This document shows positions 3,706 to 11,470 of a DNA stretch of 11,635 bases, in pieces; position 1 is the first letter of the stretch, and each line of letters starts with the position of its first letter. A model generated the notes under the pieces. That model did no database searches, was not told where the DNA came from, and saw only the letters and a list, made by a program, of their open reading frames with translations. This DNA is from a virus (taxonomy: Duplodnaviria > Heunggongvirae > Uroviricota > Caudoviricetes): the IMG/VR virus record IMGVR_UViG_2660238190_000006. One strand, 5' to 3'. The position numbers and the translations under genes are program-made.

Positions 3706-4005
3706 ATGAAACTTAAATATTCTGGCTTAACTGCCAGTGGCAACACTCACCCTAAATTTACGCGCGGTGATATTTACCGCGACCAGTACGGCGGCACGGT
3801 AATGATTAAGGGCGTGGAAGAACGGCGCGTAACCTACCGCCGTGAAGGTTACGAATATGATTGCGTGATGCCTGTTTATCAGTTCCGGCGTGATTTTTCT
3901 CTGGTACAGACCGCGCCGCATAACGTGCCCACCAGCAACGCCAGGGCACGGGCAAACATCCAGAAGCTGAAAACCATGGTTAACGGATTCAGGGGCAAGA
4001 AATGA
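3706..4005 (+). CDS. Hypothetical protein (99 aa)
   Basis: RBS GGAGA about 10 nt upstream; stop overlaps the replicase start (ATGA). No family recognised. Confidence 0.6.
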   Translation: MKLKYSGLTASGNTHPKFTRGDIYRDQYGGTVMIKGVEERRVTYRREGYEYDCVMPVYQFRRDFSLVQTAPHNVPTSNARARANIQKLKTMVNGFRGKK

Positions 4006-5402
4006 AAAGCGCACCGAACTTAAAAAAACAGCCTTACGACAAGATGACCGAAGTCATCATTTTTGCGGGTAGTGATGCGTGGGCACATGCGAAACAGTGG
4101 CAGGAACAGGACGGGCGACTGGCTGGCGATAATGTGCCTCCCATTGTGCTGGCTGATGATCAACTGGATGAACTGGCAGACCTGAGAATCATCGACGAGG
4201 GGCGCTATTGTGTCCGGCTGTACAAGGCAGGCCACATCAGGCCATCAAATATTAATGCCATTGCGCACAAGCTGGCGGCGGCGGGCGTAACTGATGCGAA
4301 TTATTACCCCGAAGGGATGCACAGCCATATGCGGGAGAACTGGCGCGAATACCTGGAACGGGTGCGCGGGAAAGAGCCGGCGGAAGAAAAAAACCACCAG
4401 CGAAAAACCACGCTACCGATGAGCGTTGGATCTACCGGATACGACACGCAACTGGATTACGTGGTTAAGGGGATTATTCCGGCGGTATCGCTATGCAGCA
4501 TATACGGGGCTAGCGGGTCCTATAAATCATTCCTTGCCGGATCGTGGGCGTGCCATGTTGCCACTGGTCGCCAGTGGGGAGGCCGCAGGGTTGCACATGG
4601 TGCGGTTCTCTATGTGGTTGGTGAAGGCGGTATAGGTGTTCCGCGTCGTGTAAAAGCCTGGGAGGTTGTGCACGATGAGCAGGTGAAAAATCTGTATCTG
4701 GTAAACCGCCCCATCTTTCCGGCTGCCCCGCTTGATGTTGATGAAATGGTTATCGCTGCCCGTCAGGTGGAGCGGGAAACGGGTAAACCTGTACGCATGA
4801 TTATTCTGGATACGCTGGCGCGTTGCTTTGGTGGGAATGATGAAAATGATTCCCGTGATATGGGGGCGTTTATCCGTGGTTGTGACGAACTGAAACGACG
4901 CACAGGGGCCACGGTGCTGGTGGTTCACCATTCCGGCAAGGATGAGACGAAAGGCGCGCGCGGTTCCAGTGCATTTCGTGCTTCGCTGGATGCTGAATAC
5001 CGGATACGCAGGGAGGACGCAGGAAGCGAAGCGCTGGTTATCTCATGCACCAAAATGAAGGACGCGGAGGAACTCAAAGAAGCCGCATATGACTTACGCG
5101 TGGTGGAGCTTTTTACCGACGCTGACGGTGAATTAATCACGTCGCTGGTGGTGGTGGATGATCCGCGCCCTCCTGTTGAACTGGAGCGCATCGAGGAGGC
5201 AGGGAACAAGACGGAAAACCATACCGCGCTATGGGGGTGCATCCGTTCACGCACACAGAACGGCGACAAGTGCACGATCCAGATGTTACGTGATGACATG
5301 AAAAAGCTGGGGTATGAAATGAAAAACTTCCGGCGCTGGCTGTACAAGCTGGAAAAAGATGGGGTTATTCGTATCGATGGGGATGATGTAGCGCCGCTAT
5401 AA
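4002..5402 (+). CDS. Replication protein: RecA/DnaB-like P-loop ATPase (RepA/AAA_25-type helicase) with an N-terminal domain of unknown function
   Basis: 466-aa ORF. Walker A GASGSYKS (in IYGASGSYKSFLAG), Walker B-like hydrophobic-D stretch MIILDTLARCFGG, and HHSGKD (sensor-like) typical of RepA/DnaB-family replicative ATPases found in satellite pri-rep modules. Iteron cluster lies immediately downstream. Confidence 0.8.
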   Translation: MKSAPNLKKQPYDKMTEVIIFAGSDAWAHAKQWQEQDGRLAGDNVPPIVLADDQLDELADLRIIDEGRYCVRLYKAGHIRPSNINAIAHKLAAAGVTDANYYPEGMHSHMRENWREYLERVRGKEPAEEKNHQRKTTLPMSVGSTGYDTQLDYVVKGIIPAVSLCSIYGASGSYKSFLAGSWACHVATGRQWGGRRVAHGAVLYVVGEGGIGVPRRVKAWEVVHDEQVKNLYLVNRPIFPAAPLDVDEMVIAARQVERETGKPVRMIILDTLARCFGGNDENDSRDMGAFIRGCDELKRRTGATVLVVHHSGKDETKGARGSSAFRASLDAEYRIRREDAGSEALVISCTKMKDAEELKEAAYDLRVVELFTDADGELITSLVVVDDPRPPVELERIEEAGNKTENHTALWGCIRSRTQNGDKCTIQMLRDDMKKLGYEMKNFRRWLYKLEKDGVIRIDGDDVAPL

Positions 5403-5593
5403 AAGTGAGGAGCAAAAGCGAGGGGGATAGAAAGAGGGCCAAAATTAGCCCGCTCCCCCTCACTTTTCGACCTGTATACATCCTCAAAAGTGAGGGGTAA
5501 AAAAATACTTATGAAACACACACATAGAAAAACCGAAAATCCCAACTGCGACGAAGTGAGACGCTTGAAAAAGTGAGGCGAAAAAGTGAGAGG
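5401..5593. promoter_or_regulatory. Iteron cluster (AAAGTGAGG repeats, both orientations) with an AT-rich spacer; putative replication origin and/or operator
   Basis: Seen: AAAAGTGAGG at 5401-5410, inverted copy at 5455-5467, AAAAGTGAGGGG 5486-5497, GAAGTGAGAC 5553-5562, AAAAAGTGAGG 5568-5578, AAAAAGTGAGAGG 5581-5593, plus degenerate AAAGCGAGGGGGA 5415-5427. An AT-rich tract at 5497-5545 lies between copies. Position directly 3' of the replicase gene is typical for satellite/PICI origins (inference). Confidence 0.55.
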
Positions 5594-5602
5594 TTGCGAG
5601 AA

Positions 5603-5854
5603 ATGACCCAAAAACGCAGAGACAGAACAGAGCCAAAATATAAAGCGTTAGACATGACTGAGCACACCTTAAAGGTGGCAATCAGAACGATAGACCGCCA
5701 CACGCGGGAAGGATACGCGAAGGAACATCCCGACCTGATAAGCGCATTCATGACCACGGCGGCGGCAAACTTTGCCACGCTGACAGAACGGGAGATTGCC
5801 GAAGCGGAACAGGTAACAACCATCAACGTTAAAACCGGAGAGTTGGAATCATGA
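5603..5854 (+). CDS. Hypothetical protein (83 aa)
   Basis: ATG 5603 with RBS GAGAGG (inside the last iteron); the tracked ORF's upstream start at 5573 lies within the iterons and was rejected. No family recognised. Confidence 0.55.
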   Translation: MTQKRRDRTEPKYKALDMTEHTLKVAIRTIDRHTREGYAKEHPDLISAFMTTAAANFATLTEREIAEAEQVTTINVKTGELES

Positions 5855-6156
5855 GCGAACCAAAATTTGGTGAAAAACTTTACAAGCACAACGGACGGAT
5901 CACGATTCAGCAAATAAGCGCAGCTACACCAGGCTGGTGGGTTGAAACAGACGAAGGATCCTCACCCGTGGCATCATGGGCGCTTTGTGTGCTTAGTTAC
6001 CCTGACCGCGATGTGTATCAGGATATTCTGCCTGTGATATCCACTGATAAAGGCATGAAGCCCGTAGACATCAAAAACATGGGTTTTCAGTGCGTAATGC
6101 TCACTGAAAAAATGATGGAAGAGATGAAAAAGAACAACGCCGGATCGCTTCACTGA
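5851..6156 (+). CDS. Hypothetical protein (101 aa)
   Basis: ATGA overlap with the upstream gene; RBS GGAGAG 9 nt upstream. No family recognised. Confidence 0.6.
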   Translation: MSEPKFGEKLYKHNGRITIQQISAATPGWWVETDEGSSPVASWALCVLSYPDRDVYQDILPVISTDKGMKPVDIKNMGFQCVMLTEKMMEEMKKNNAGSLH

Positions 6157-6165
6157 GGTGGCAAT

Positions 6166-6576
6166 ATGACAGCACAAATTGCAGCTTACGGGCGGCTGGT
6201 GGACGACCCGCAGGTAAAACAGACCAGCAAGGGTACACCGATGACGCTGGCGCGTATGGCGGTATCGCTGCCATGCAGCCAGGCACAGGATGGACAGGCG
6301 ACGTTATGGCTATCGGTCATCGCATTTGGTAAGCAGGCCGACTTCCTGGCTAAACATCAAAAAGGCGACGTTGCCAGCGTATCCGGCACGATGCAGGTCA
6401 GCCAGTGGACCGGACAGAACGGGGAAACGCGGCAGGGTTATCAGGTTATTGCAGACAGCGTAATCAGTGCCCGTGCGGCACGTCCTGGTGGGAGCCGACG
6501 CAAGACCACAGGCACACAGGGTAATCAGCCACCAGCGGGAGGCGATGACCCTTACGGTGATGATATTCCGTTCTGA
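6166..6576 (+). CDS. ssb: Single-stranded DNA-binding protein (SSB-like)
   Basis: 136-aa ORF. OB-fold-like N-terminal region, Gly/Gln/Pro-rich linker and C-terminal acidic tip DDPYGDDIPF, matching the conserved DDDIPF tail of bacterial SSB. RBS GAGGTGG upstream. Confidence 0.75.
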   Translation: MTAQIAAYGRLVDDPQVKQTSKGTPMTLARMAVSLPCSQAQDGQATLWLSVIAFGKQADFLAKHQKGDVASVSGTMQVSQWTGQNGETRQGYQVIADSVISARAARPGGSRRKTTGTQGNQPPAGGDDPYGDDIPF

Positions 6577-6588
6577 GGGGTGGGGACG

Positions 6589-6861
6589 ATGGTACATGAC
6601 CGCATAGCGGAAGAACTGGAGGCGAAAGGCTTTTACCGGAGAGCGTCGGCGCGATGGGGTGAAGTCATGCAACTGGTGGAGACAGACAAGGAACGGCATC
6701 ACATCACGATGCGACGGCTGGAATGTTCCAGGAAGGCACAGAGGCCACCGGAGCCGCCGGATAATTACGGAGACCTGAAAAAGGCGGTCGATCGCACTTA
6801 TGCCGAAATGGGTATGGATGGTGCTGGTGATGAAATATGGCGAAATTACCAGGACAGATAA
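6589..6861 (+). CDS. PerC-family-like transcriptional activator (tentative)
   Basis: About 90-aa ORF. AEELEAKGFYRRASARWGEVM resembles the PerC/Pch N-terminal signature (LE..G.WRRAA..W) as remembered. ATG 6589 with GAGGGG RBS is preferred over GTG 6580. Followed by a terminator. Confidence 0.5.
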   Translation: MVHDRIAEELEAKGFYRRASARWGEVMQLVETDKERHHITMRRLECSRKAQRPPEPPDNYGDLKKAVDRTYAEMGMDGAGDEIWRNYQDR

Positions 6862-6867
6862 TCACAC

Positions 6868-6890
6868 AGCCGGAGCAATCCGGCTTTTTG
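6868..6890 (+). terminator. Rho-independent terminator after the PerC-like gene
   Basis: Seen: AGCCGGA-GCAA-TCCGGCT stem-loop followed by TTTTT. Confidence 0.65.
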
Positions 6891-6918
6891 TCATGTTTTG
6901 TAAATTATTTGTTCGTGG

Positions 6919-6933
6919 TTGTTCCACGTTGTT
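6919..6933. repeat. 15-mer TTGTTCCACGTTGTT (copy 1) within three tandem TTGTTC-containing decamers
   Basis: Seen: exact 15-mer shared with 11370-11384. Local context tatTTGTTCgtggTTGTTCcacgTTGTTCgctg. Confidence 0.5.
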
Positions 6934-7111
6934 CGCTGACCGGATCGGCATATTTTACCCGAACTGAATCATGATTATTCTCGCCCGTGGTGCCAGGACG
7001 CTGGGGCCACTTTCCCGCCTGTTAATGTGCCCGCCAATATTCATTACCAGGCGGGAAAACGATCGGTGCGATTGCTGATTTCCTTATGAAAAACGGTTGA
7101 GTGTTTGCCGC

Positions 7112-7148
7112 GTCCTGGAGTTCCTTACTTAACTTCAGGACTTTTTTT
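7112..7148 (+). terminator. Strong intrinsic terminator/attenuator hairpin ending in T7, directly abutting the capsid start codon and sequestering its RBS
   Basis: Seen: 11-bp stem GTCCTGGAGTT (7112-7122) pairing with AACTTCAGGAC (7131-7141), one G-U pair, 8-nt loop, then TTTTTTT (7142-7148), then ATG at 7149. The AGGA RBS (7137-7140) is inside the 3' arm. Confidence 0.6.
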
Positions 7149-8306
7149 ATGCCGAGAATAATCGAATTACGCCAGCAGAAAACCGCCATTAAAAATCAGA
7201 TGCGCGACATGCTGGAGAACGCGGAAAAAGAAAACCGCAGCCTTAACGATGCTGAGGGCGCAAAATTTGACGAATTACGCGCTAAAGCTGAATCCCTCGA
7301 TAAAGACATCTCCCGCCTTGAGGCCGTTGCTGACGAAGAGCGCAGTAAACCAGGCAAAAACAGCCAGACCACTGACCCCGCCGAACTACGTCACTACATT
7401 CTGACAGGTGAAACCCGCGCATTGAGTACAGGCGTTCCCGCTGATGGTGGTTATACCGTTATCCCCGAACTGAACACCGAAATCATGCGAATGCTGACGG
7501 ATGAATCCACCATGCGCCGCATCTGTACCGTGAAGAAAATCAGCAGCAACGAGTTTAAGCAGCTTGTTTCCGCTGGCGGTGCGACCGTTAACCACGGTGA
7601 AGAGGGTAAGGCACGCGAACAGACCAGCACCCCGCAGATTAACGAGGTGAGCATTAAGCTGTATCCGGTCTATGCGTACCCGCGCACCACGCAGGAAATC
7701 GTGGATTTTTCCGATGTGGACATCCTTTCATGGCTGACGGGCGAGATTGGCGACACCTTCACGGAAACCGAAGAAAGCGATCTGGTTGTGGGCGACGGTG
7801 ACAAAAAAGCAAAAGGCTTTTTATCCGTACCCCGTGCAGAGAAGAACGACAAAGAGCGTGATTTTGGTACGTTGCAGGTAATTAAACCTTCCGAATCTCT
7901 GGCGTGGACATCTGCGGACCCGCTGATCGACCTGAAATTTGCATTACGTAAAAAATACCGCAAAAACGCGGTCTGGGTGGTTAACTCCACGACGGCGGCA
8001 AAACTCCAGAAGGTGAAGAACGCGAACGGTGATTACATCTGGCGTGACCGTTTACAGGCGGGTGATCCTGATACGTTGCTGGGCCTTCCGGTCGAATATC
8101 TGGAGTTTATGCCGGATAACGTTATTGCCCTGGGTGACTTCAAACGCGGTTACTACATTGTTGATCACGAAACAGGTGTTCGCACCAGACCGGACAACCT
8201 CACAGAGCCGGGCTTCATCAAAATTTTCGCGCAGAAATATTTAGGCGGTGGCGTGGTGGATTCGAACGCGATCAAGATTCTGGAACTGCCACAGGACGAC
8301 GATTAA
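7149..8306 (+). CDS. Major capsid protein, HK97 fold, with N-terminal coiled-coil scaffold (delta-like) domain
   Basis: N-terminal coiled coil RIIELRQQKTAIKNQMRDMLENAEKENRSLNDAEGAKFDELRAKAESLDKDISRLEAV matches the HK97-family MCP delta-domain pattern. GDGDKKAKGFLS fits the conserved G.G...p.Gil region. Start 7149 chosen over GTG 7101; start is uncertain. Confidence 0.85.
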   Translation: MPRIIELRQQKTAIKNQMRDMLENAEKENRSLNDAEGAKFDELRAKAESLDKDISRLEAVADEERSKPGKNSQTTDPAELRHYILTGETRALSTGVPADGGYTVIPELNTEIMRMLTDESTMRRICTVKKISSNEFKQLVSAGGATVNHGEEGKAREQTSTPQINEVSIKLYPVYAYPRTTQEIVDFSDVDILSWLTGEIGDTFTETEESDLVVGDGDKKAKGFLSVPRAEKNDKERDFGTLQVIKPSESLAWTSADPLIDLKFALRKKYRKNAVWVVNSTTAAKLQKVKNANGDYIWRDRLQAGDPDTLLGLPVEYLEFMPDNVIALGDFKRGYYIVDHETGVRTRPDNLTEPGFIKIFAQKYLGGGVVDSNAIKILELPQDDD

Positions 8307-8918: not shown

Positions 8919-10438
8919 TATGTGGCCTTTCCAGGGTGTGCCCGCACGTAAAAGGGCCGATGCGTGGCAGACCCATTGAGCTGGAGCCGTGGCAGCAGTT
9001 CGCCTTTGCGTGCATCCTCGGCTTTAAGGTTAAGGCCACCGGACGGCGCAAATACACGAGCGCCTTTATCGAAGTGCCGCGCAAAAATGCGAAATCCACG
9101 ACCGCCGCGATTCTGGCTAACTGGTTTCTGATTATGGAGAACGGTCAGCAGGATATCTACACCGCAGCGGTGAGCCGTGACCAGGCGCGGATCGTCTTTG
9201 ATGATGCGCGTCAGATGTGCCTTTTATCCCGACCGTTACGCAGGCGGGTGAATATTCAGGCGCATAAGGTGATGCACCCGAAAAGCAACAGCCTGTTAAA
9301 GCCGCTGGCAGCAAAAGCGGCAACCATCGAGGGAACAAACCCCAGCCTTTCCATCGTGGACGAATACCACTTGCACCCCGATAACGGCGTTTATTCCGCG
9401 CTTGAGCTGGGGATGGGCGCACGCCCCGAAGGGCTGTTATTTGCTATTACCACATCAGGCAGTAACGTCGTTTCAGCCTGTAAGCAGCACTATGATTATT
9501 GCTGCCAGATCCTGGACGGCGAAGAGGTCAACGATTCAATTTTTGTACTGATTTACGAACTGGACGACGAAAACGAGGTTGATGATCCGGCGATGTGGAT
9601 AAAGGCGAACCCTAATATTGATGTTTCCGTGGATCGTGAAAAACTGGCCTCAACCATCCAGAAAGCGCGGGGTATTCCGTCGCAGTGGGTGGAGATGATG
9701 ACAAAGCGATTTAATATCTGGTGCCAGGGGGCTACCCCGTGGATGGGTAACGGCGCATGGGCTGAGTGTGCCGGAACGTTCACGGAGGAAGATTTACACG
9801 GCCAGGAGTGTTACGCGGGGCTGGACTTATCATCAACCAGCGATATTTCCAGCGTGTGCTATGCCTTTCCGGTCGGTAAAACCATTATGCTGGTTTCCCG
9901 TCACTATCTGCCGGAATTTCAGCTACAGAACCCCGCCAATAAAAACCGCGCCATCTATCGTCAGTGGGCTAAAGCAGGCTGGATACGCACAACGCCTGGC
10001 GACTGCATTGATTACGACCGGATCAGAGATGACATCATGCAGGACGCGGAGAAATTTAATATCAGGCTGGTGGGCTTTGATACGTGGAACGCCACGCATC
10101 TCAGAACGCAATTACAGGGGGCAGGTTTTGAGGTGGAGCCGTTCCCGCAAACCTACCTCAGATTCAGTCCGGCGGCGAAATCGTTCGAAGTTTTTGTTAA
10201 CCGCAGGGTGATTGTGCATCGTGGCGATCCGGTGTTGTCCTGGTCGATGAGTAACGTCGTGATGCAGAGTGACGCGAACGCCAATATCAAGCCGAACAAG
10301 AAAAAATCACCGAACAAGATAGACCCGAGCGTGGCGGCGCTGATGGCGTTTGGTACATTCCAGGCAGAGCATGAGGATTTTGCTTTTGATATAAGCGACA
10401 GCCACCGCCAGAAACTGGAAGAATTTAGCGGGGTGTAA
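8894..10438 (+). CDS. Terminase large subunit (Terminase_1 / COG4626-type), with a short N-terminus
   Basis: Motifs recognised: LEPWQQF; P-loop EVPRKNAKSTTAA; AAVSRDQARIVF; Walker B SIVDEYHLH; ITTSG; WIKANPNIDVSV; GLDLSSTSD; C-terminal KPNKKKSPNKIDPSVAALMAF. Start ambiguous (GTG 8894 overlapping the protease end, GTG 8936, or ATG 8960). Confidence 0.85.
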   Translation: MGGFSGGVICGLSRVCPHVKGPMRGRPIELEPWQQFAFACILGFKVKATGRRKYTSAFIEVPRKNAKSTTAAILANWFLIMENGQQDIYTAAVSRDQARIVFDDARQMCLLSRPLRRRVNIQAHKVMHPKSNSLLKPLAAKAATIEGTNPSLSIVDEYHLHPDNGVYSALELGMGARPEGLLFAITTSGSNVVSACKQHYDYCCQILDGEEVNDSIFVLIYELDDENEVDDPAMWIKANPNIDVSVDREKLASTIQKARGIPSQWVEMMTKRFNIWCQGATPWMGNGAWAECAGTFTEEDLHGQECYAGLDLSSTSDISSVCYAFPVGKTIMLVSRHYLPEFQLQNPANKNRAIYRQWAKAGWIRTTPGDCIDYDRIRDDIMQDAEKFNIRLVGFDTWNATHLRTQLQGAGFEVEPFPQTYLRFSPAAKSFEVFVNRRVIVHRGDPVLSWSMSNVVMQSDANANIKPNKKKSPNKIDPSVAALMAFGTFQAEHEDFAFDISDSHRQKLEEFSGV

Positions 10439-10451
10439 TGAGGTCAGCAGC

Positions 10452-10733
10452 ATGACAGAAGCCGAAATAACGGGATTAATCCGCCGCGTTGCCGGAATCA
10501 GCCAGCAGGCTGACGAACAGGCCACGCAGCCGGACAGCGTGACAGCCGAAAACTATGCGCGTGTTGTTGCTGAGGTGATGCGCCGTGATGGTATAGAACT
10601 TAATGGCGTGGATATGCGCAACATACGAACCAGAGCTCTTGAGTTGCTGGCCTACCGTCGCCGCGTGGAGATGTATCGGGAGAAGGAGAAAATAACGTAC
10701 CACTGGAAGAAGCCGGAGCGGTTGCGGCGGTAA
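10452..10733 (+). CDS. Hypothetical protein (93 aa) downstream of TerL
   Basis: ATG with RBS GAGGT 8 nt upstream, 13 nt after the TerL stop. Possibly a head-completion/connector-like or packaging accessory protein, but no family recognised. Confidence 0.55.
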   Translation: MTEAEITGLIRRVAGISQQADEQATQPDSVTAENYARVVAEVMRRDGIELNGVDMRNIRTRALELLAYRRRVEMYREKEKITYHWKKPERLRR

Positions 10734-11170: not shown

Positions 11171-11369
11171 GATGCTTTTACCCCATTGGGGGAAAGGTAT
11201 TACGATAATCATAACACCTACCGAACAGGTAAAGCCCACCAGCCTGATTAACGTTTAACCGGAAAAAAATTCCGGTAGGTGGGGATCCCCATATCGACAT
11301 TAACGCCCCTCATGAATTGGTGCGCTTCCCCCTGGAAAGATGATCCGCCTGTATATTTCTTGTGTCTAT

Positions 11370-11384
11370 TTGTTCCACGTTGTT
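11370..11384. repeat. 15-mer TTGTTCCACGTTGTT (copy 2)
   Basis: Seen: exact match to 6919-6933; shared TATTTGTTC prefix as well. Confidence 0.5.
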
Positions 11385-11470
11385 TCATACAGTGCACCGA
11401 ACGGTGTAGTCACTGGTGTAGTCATTTTGCGATTTTTGGCACTTTTTGCGGTGAAAATTATTTAATTAAA

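Follow-up and report, generated by a model that had tools for sequence, protein, structure and literature searches.

A gene for a small protein of the PerC family lies between the replication genes and the head genes of a phage satellite, which raises the question of what its product controls: a virulence regulon of the host, the late genes of the satellite, or some other process. The first-pass annotation of this DNA (hereafter the window, the whole stretch of 11,635 nucleotides analysed here) had assigned the gene at 6589-6861 to the PerC/Pch family, and had proposed that it was either a cargo virulence regulator, for example of the LEE via ler, or the satellite's own late-gene activator. 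Our analysis led to another explanation, to which we give a probability of roughly 0.55 as a whole: the gene would be an allele of pchE that closes a short operon (small ORFs, ssb, perC) beginning at the replication origin, and its product would be a protein-protein modulator. The features needed for the argument are as follows.

1-1218: integrase (int).
1603-1791: AlpA.
3706-4005, + strand: DUF4222 protein, a homologue of RgdR.
4002-5402: RepA/AAA_25 helicase.
5401-5600, + strand: iteron region resembling a replication origin, with AAAAGTGAGG repeats (direct repeats D2 and D4).
5603-5854, + strand: small ECs1586-like ORF (PHROG 1231) that opens the putative ssb-perC operon.
5851-6156, + strand: small ORF (PHROG 27268), second in the putative ssb-perC operon.
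6166-6576, + strand: ssb (Pfam SSB, E 4.2e-17), probably co-transcribed with perC.
6575-6585, + strand: purine-rich stretch GAGGGGTGGGG, a putative ribosome-binding site read from the sequence.
6589-6861, + strand: perC/pchE-like coding sequence (PF06069 over the full length, 88% identity to ECs_1588, dN/dS about 0.26).
6868-6890, + strand: intrinsic terminator-like hairpin AGCCGGAGCAATCCGGCT with a T-run, from a terminator scan, 7 nt past the perC stop.
6893-6939, + strand: conserved cis-block with three TTGTTC (6909, 6919 and 6929) at exact 10-bp spacing, part of the head module and not of perC.
7011-7058, + strand: 17-bp inverted repeat or hairpin in the capsid leader (−23.5 kcal/mol, z −4.2).
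7112-7148, + strand: 11-bp hairpin with a run of seven T, ending at the capsid ATG (−16 kcal/mol, z −4.5).
7149-8306, + strand: major capsid protein of the HK97 type, encoded at the start of the head operon (Phage_capsid, E 9.9e-62; TIGR01554, E 2.1e-88).

The perC frame runs from the ATG at 6589 to the TAA at 6859-6861 on the + strand and encodes 90 aa. The ORF listing places the start further 5′, at a GTG at 6580; the homologues all begin at the MVHD... ATG. The GAGGGGTGGGG stretch before this ATG is largely kept in Sakai Sp7 and strain 14EC001, with substitutions and a 2-nt length difference. Searches against Pfam matched the protein to PF06069 (PerC) with an E-value of 2.7e-43 and 146.6 bits (cut-off 22.6 bits), residues 1-89 aligning with profile positions 1-89 of 90, and this end-to-end match confirmed the family call of the first-pass annotation. 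PHROG 994 was also matched (E 2.9e-46), and PerC and ANR were the sole families that the profile searches returned. The frame is intact in 78 of 78 loci, and the mean dN/dS over the 39 distinct alleles found there is about 0.26, indicating purifying selection; perC is therefore regarded as a functional gene, less constrained than ssb (0.16) and the capsid gene (0.06). Because the PerC frame holds both the profile match and the selection signature, the overlapping ORFs at 6310-6702 (−), 6704-6865 (−) and 6800-6967 (+) were judged spurious. PADLOC recognised neither PerC nor its small neighbours as part of a defence system. Between the ssb stop (6576) and the start of the gene are 12 nt, and 287 nt separate its end from the capsid ATG at 7149; it thus does lie between the replication and head modules as had been described.

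The satellite context proposed earlier also held: the window carries a phage-inducible chromosomal island (PICI) of the capsid-forming type (cf-PICI) that is inserted in tqsA, with its right end adjoining the 5′ part of that gene. The PICI order of int, alpA and replication module is present, small ORFs sit between AlpA and the DUF4222 gene, and the head operon follows perC in the order capsid, prohead protease and TerL. The scanned ORFs of the window showed no tail or lysis domains. The head and packaging set is incomplete, in that capsid, protease and an N-truncated TerL are present, and the portal, head-closure, connector, HNH and TerS genes of the full cf-PICI set are absent. The closest E. 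coli relatives of the island have a full head operon, and the IMG/VR locus L022 is an intact twin whose RepA, ssb, PerC, capsid and protease proteins are 100% identical to those of the window. Compared with L022, 3,043 bp are missing from the interior of the window's head operon, between the end of the protease gene and about codon 49 of terL; the junction, with a 7-bp overlap, is at window 8925-8931, and the missing segment corresponds to L022 10343-13385. Since this deletion took all five absent genes, the window represents a defective cf-PICI, which, unlike the intact twin, cannot build or fill its own capsids. A terminal small ORF at 10452-10733 (+; PHROG 1561), whose product ends in ...YHWKKP.R.RR, is kept at the right end in all PICI types seen, including the Pantoea and Erwinia islands (counterparts at L005 16409-16597 and L004 14294-14494).

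Comparison of the window protein with characterized members of the family revealed 88% identity over 89 residues (11 differ) to PchE (ECs_1588) of E. coli O157 Sakai Sp7 and 96% identity to the copy in strain 14EC001, against 41% to EPEC PerC of pMAR2 and 43% to a 104-aa group-1 Pch encoded beside EDL933 prophage lysis genes. By sequence comparison covering group 1 and EPEC PerC, the window gene is an allele of pchE, a group-3 PerC homologue. Sp7 is the same element as CP-933C and OI-51, the prototype cf-PICI EcCIEDL933; its corresponding gene is annotated pchE, and the order ssb-perC-(cassette)-capsid is the same. Megablast located perC-like copies in 767 of 5,426 complete E. coli genomes, 90 of the copies being at least 99% identical and some 100%, and every copy among the matches listed was annotated as 'PerC family transcriptional regulator'. 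Furthermore, an identical perC allele occurs in a cf-PICI at the roxA/phoQ site that has a different primase, which showed that the ssb-perC module moves between island backbones.

The operon to which perC would belong is suggested by work on O157, where 5′ RACE gave a single ECs1586-ssb-pchE transcript starting 10 nt upstream of ECs1586 (PMC7369912). By analogy with the Sakai transcription start (PMC7369912), the operon start and its promoter would fall within 5401-5600. This stretch carries the iterons and is a PICI-type origin preceding the ssb-perC operon. The origin region varies between elements with different replication proteins; the iterons of Sakai Sp7 and D17EC0246 differ (ATAACCCGC; CTGTCTACC), matching their own replication proteins, and those of the window are AAAAGTGAGG. 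To describe the neighbourhood more widely, we surveyed 80 IMG/VR loci with PerC of at least 76% identity, 76 of which had enough downstream sequence for neighbour counts. SSB lies immediately upstream of PerC in 72 of these 76 loci, and an 18-nt stem-loop with a T-run lies no more than 60 nt past PerC in 72 IMG/VR loci. In the window, the AGCCGGAGCAATCCGGCT hairpin folds as RNA with −13.2 kcal/mol (z −4.3). It occupies the first 28 nt of the 287-nt spacer between perC and the capsid gene, the sole part of that spacer common with loci without an HK97 capsid gene; the remaining 260 nt or so are found only together with an HK97 capsid gene, at 92-99.7% identity. Since the hairpin alone is common to both island types, it marks the boundary of the ssb-perC module. 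A cassette of about 355 bp with a 74-aa ECs1589-like ORF lies between perC and the next module in many relatives (L001 9584-9940, L002 9049-9400), bracketed by two copies of the perC terminator hairpin. It is missing from the window (between 6861 and 6890) and from at least 11 loci, as if gained or lost via recombination between the hairpins.

One of the two roles first put forward, that of a cargo virulence activator of ler and the LEE in the manner of EPEC PerC or PchA-C, could draw on the common PF06069 family, on the 41-43% identity to PerC and group-1 Pch with an N-terminal motif in common, and on one study in which ler rose slightly more than 2-fold under pchE over-expression. We consider it highly improbable, since the gene falls in the PchE clade and not near the LEE-activating members. 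Two papers that cite Porter 2005 (PMC6265319, PMC11773190) give PchE-type (group 3) proteins little or no effect on LEE1/ler, and the Uhlich group (PMC6265319, PMC7369912) describes Pch of groups 2 and 3 as not required for ler/espA expression. According to PMC11773190, the PerC-like genes of EcCIEDL933 and EcCICFT073 left LEE1-lacZ unaffected. The PICI homologue EcCIMP1_025 represses LEE1, and the C-terminal tail of the 104-aa group-1 protein is missing from the window protein. Moreover, the island type has another LEE1 activator: RgdR is a LEE1 and motility regulator of OI-51, and ecs1581 was named as the island's LEE1 activator (Flockhart et al., PMC3378721). The DUF4222 protein of the window shares 81% identity with RgdR (ECs1581) and retains the R20-G21-D22 motif, so that the known virulence regulator of this island is the gene at 3706-4005 and not the PerC homologue.

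A host-directed role of another kind is described in the PchE literature. Over-expression of pchE represses csgD/curli, lpfA1 and eae and induces flhDC/fliC (PMC6265319, PMC7369912), the PchE phenotypes coming mostly from plasmid over-expression (Uhlich group). Of the suggestion that perC is a cargo virulence regulator, the host-directed part is therefore supported for curli and flagella, and LEE activation is unlikely.

To see how such effects could arise, we considered the predicted structure. The AlphaFold2 model (pLDDT 88) consists of four helices, the first three of which form a TPR/ANR-like bundle, and no DNA-binding motif (HTH or zinc finger) was present in the predicted fold. Alignment of 61 PerC sequences showed that D4, A7, L10, Y16, R22, W23, R36 and C46 are invariant, also in comparison with EPEC PerC and group-1 Pch; the single conserved Cys argues that PerC has no zinc finger. 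A search of solved structures by sequence gave spurious coiled-coil matches (PACSIN F-BAR and others) at E 0.006 or worse and was uninformative. The ANR model NF033650 aligned residues 7-52 of the window protein with profile positions 9-54 at 19.1 bits, below the 32-bit cut-off (E 8.6e-4), and it was matched by 50 of the 61 family members (best E 1.9e-8). On these profile scores ANR is a related family, of which the window protein is not counted as a member.

ANR/Aar is a three-helix protein without a DNA-binding domain that binds AggR and H-NS directly (PMC4983702, PMC5570504), and Pch de-silences LEE1 via reduced H-NS binding (PMC4764244). The likeness to ANR, the binding partners of Aar and the effect of Pch on H-NS are the reasons why we prefer a protein-protein modulator, a mechanism that would extend to the window allele by analogy. 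Judging from its predicted fold, PerC would read no specific DNA site and would act through protein-protein contacts with the silencers H-NS, StpA and Hha and/or with AraC-type activators. The H-NS-controlled genes of the host would thereby be retuned, in the case of PchE with curli/csgD down and flhDC/fliC up. ChIP placed Pch at promoters (PMC4764244), and by the same analogy some DNA association of a PerC-type protein is possible. We infer that the window protein is neither a LEE activator nor a dedicated activator of the capsid operon.

The latter role was the second proposal of the first-pass annotation, namely that PerC, as the product of an early operon, switches on the head operon via 6862-7148 as the satellite's late-gene activator. 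The location directly before the head operon is typical of phage late activators, and PerC precedes a morphogenesis or packaging module in both PICI types. A scan of 5300-7400 for consensus sigma-70 sequences found no promoter, so the capsid operon probably requires an activator or read-through. Over-expression of alpA has been reported to be sufficient for EcCIEDL933 reproduction, and this result is compatible with a late activator because it would induce perC too. Against these points stands the comparison of the loci with a close PerC: an HK97 capsid gene follows in 32 of 76 and is absent in 44. L034, the one of these 44 that was examined, has a module of the lambda E/D/Nu1 type, preceded by unrelated sequence (9082-11656, homologues of lambda-type capsid E, decoration D and a Nu1-like small terminase). 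As L034-type islands carry lambda-type genes instead, close perC alleles precede two unrelated morphogenesis modules, and the terminator hairpin is the only sequence that the two island types have in common. Besides, PerC alleles of 77-100% identity are followed by a capsid-upstream region that varies little (92-99.7% identity); varied alleles thus meet an unchanged region, and the two do not co-vary. In L016, PerC has almost nothing downstream.

The predicted fold without a DNA-binding motif argues in the same direction, as does the expression of pchE, which is low and steady without induction and drops upon SOS induction (PMC6265319, PMC7369912). Neither the folds of established late activators (Ogr/Delta zinc fingers, Q, RinA/ArpU-type) nor a co-varying site was found, and the conserved cis-element, a TTGTTC array that is also present beside int, in the int-alpA spacer and close to the right end, points to a DNA binder of the recombination or AlpA type. 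Comparative data and predicted fold thus speak against the satellite's own late-gene activator, and a dedicated late-activator role for PerC is unlikely.

The cis-block itself (6893-6939) is nearly invariant in all 37 head-operon loci among those listed. In the alignment with L018, a divergent cf-PICI (capsid 74%, AlpA 60%, PerC 59% and Int 41% identical), no part of the spacer other than this block is well conserved. Clusters of at least three exact TTGTT at 10-bp spacing occur twice in the window, at 6909-6933 (+) and at 1276-1320 (−) in the int-alpA spacer. With one mismatch allowed, the int-alpA array extends to six repeats (1266-1320), and a third array, close to the right end, appears at 11360-11384 (+). 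A fourth TTGTT array lies immediately left of int in complete relatives (L001 2899-2933), which also carry a 23-bp repeat at each end of the island. Binders of the excisionase or integrase type typically have phased arrays of this kind beside the attachment arms, which points to AlpA or Int, rather than PerC, as the protein acting upstream of the capsid operon. We therefore offer as a lead that the TTGTTC arrays are candidate binding sites of AlpA/excisionase or Int, which would link excision to control of the head operon. L018 and L028 have the array before the capsid gene and lack the arrays elsewhere, and this weakens the argument for one and the same binder. The 23-bp repeat, CGGTGTAGTCACTGGTGTAGTCA (a tandem 11-mer), lies inside the tqsA junctions, with copies at 11402-11424 (+) in the window and at 2941-2963 and 18268-18290 in L001. 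Such end repeats may be a set of arm-type recombinase sites.

Between the cis-block and the capsid gene, the 17-bp inverted repeat (7011-7058) lies 50 nt upstream of the hairpin at 7112-7148, whose 3′ arm holds an AGGA Shine-Dalgarno sequence. Their predicted folding suggests that the capsid gene is subject to attenuation or translational masking; in L018 neither hairpin is conserved. A weak promoter might be read into the sequence, with TTGTTC at 6929-6934 as −35 and TATTTT at 6951-6956 as −10. An Rfam search of 6400-7400 returned nothing meaningful.

PerC homologues with 40-58% identity occur, among the matches listed, in E. albertii, E. ruysiae, Pantoea, Erwinia, Lonsdalea, Chimaeribacter and Buttiauxella, and more were found in Salmonella, Enterobacter and further E. 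coli islands. All surveyed homologues lie about 8-10 kb downstream of an integrase, and in most islands the interval holds alpA, a DUF4222 gene or an identifiable primase or helicase. PerC directly follows either the replication gene or an ssb or ProQ-like gene. The conserved order is int..alpA..DUF4222..primase or helicase..(SSB or ProQ)..PerC. Among 50,697 phage records there was one fragmentary PerC match, and the family is small, with 334 clusters at 50% identity (E up to 0.001). This context, together with the near absence from phage records, means that PerC is a positionally fixed part of enterobacterial PICIs and not a phage gene. In the islands L005-L010 of Pantoea, Erwinia, Lonsdalea, Chimaeribacter and Buttiauxella (about 10360-15000), PerC is followed by signal-peptide or lipoprotein-like cargo and a conserved 108-aa protein, and the loci read also encode a long tape-measure-like protein of 584 to 1,136 aa, a layout unlike that of the E. 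coli islands. L018 and L019 (E. coli GCA_000220005.2 and GCA_949281735.1) are cf-PICIs with a 59%-identical PerC, each interrupting a resident prophage's gene for the large terminase; fragments of TerL flank the island, and the gene call in L019 fuses the N-terminal part of TerL to the island integrase.

The strict position of PerC in satellites of plant-associated genera without the LEE suggests, from gene order, a role for the satellite itself, which the modulator explanation does not supply. PerC could accordingly be imagined as a core satellite function other than late activation, and not as cargo, if it countered H-NS silencing of the island or modulated a regulator of the helper phage or host during induction. 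In favour of this idea are the constant position of the gene and the purifying selection on it throughout Enterobacterales PICIs, those of genera lacking the LEE among them, its near absence from sequenced phages, the small and narrowly distributed family and the action of Pch and ANR on H-NS. It is nonetheless doubtful: the PICI and PchE literature examined contained no life-cycle phenotype of perC, published reports call perC an accessory or virulence gene, and only 'some' E. coli PICIs encode PerC alleles (Fillol-Salom et al. 2018, PMC6092414). The capsid-upstream region is also not AT-rich (GC about 0.47), for which reason H-NS silencing of the capsid promoter was rejected as an explanation of an adjacent anti-silencer. 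In a broader form we entertain, tentatively, that PerC-type proteins provide a conserved backbone function of Enterobacterales PICIs, for example as an anti-silencer or adaptor that the island would need to express or time its morphogenesis module or to manipulate the helper. If this were true, the effects on LEE, curli and flagella would be side-effects, and PerC would not be virulence cargo.

Either role proposed by the first-pass annotation had been thought notable. Publications already describe PerC-like genes of Gram-negative PICIs, as well as PchE on this type of island (PMC3378721, PMC6092414, PMC11773190), Flockhart et al. listing PchE among the OI-51 genes (PMC3378721). PchE and satellites of this kind are both known, so that the occurrence of such an allele in the window is documented already; the gene stands in the RefSeq annotation, is named pchE in O157 and is treated in the PICI literature, and it means little as a discovery. 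The value of the analysis lies in a correction, in that the PerC-like gene of this island type should not be assumed to be a LEE activator or a switch of the capsid operon.

Among known systems, PchE of EcCIEDL933 is like the window gene in its 90-aa length, the ssb upstream, the terminator hairpin, the HK97 capsid operon downstream and the type of element. The two islands differ in that Sakai Sp7 sits between roxA and phoQ and has a primase, whereas the window island is in tqsA and has a RepA-type helicase; in Sakai Sp7, moreover, the 74-aa ECs1589 cassette, missing from the window, separates perC from the capsid gene, and the window head operon has the 3-kb deletion. EPEC PerC (pMAR2/pEAF) and the EHEC group-1 Pch proteins (PchA/B/C) belong to the same Pfam family, are of similar size and have D4, A7, L10-E11, Y16-R17-R18-A19, R22-W23, R36, R43 and C46 in common with the window protein. 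Neither is found in a PICI, EPEC PerC being encoded on a virulence plasmid and group-1 Pch at the lysis-gene end of lambdoid prophages. The 104-aa group-1 Pch has a 14-residue C-terminal extension that is missing in the window protein, and EPEC PerC and PchA/B/C activate LEE1, whereas PchE, according to the papers cited above, does not. EcCIMP1_025 of the PICI EcCIMP1 is, like the window protein, a PICI-borne member of the PerC family; it is about 40% identical to the EcCIEDL933 and EcCICFT073 proteins, its authors note a resemblance to ANR, and it silences LEE1-lux in C. rodentium (PMC11773190). The ANR proteins (Aar, Rnr, Cnr) have a three-helix core like that predicted for PerC. Aar is about 63 aa long, whereas the window protein has 90 aa with a fourth helix, and ANR genes typically accompany AraC-type virulence activators, whereas perC in the window follows the replication module of a satellite.
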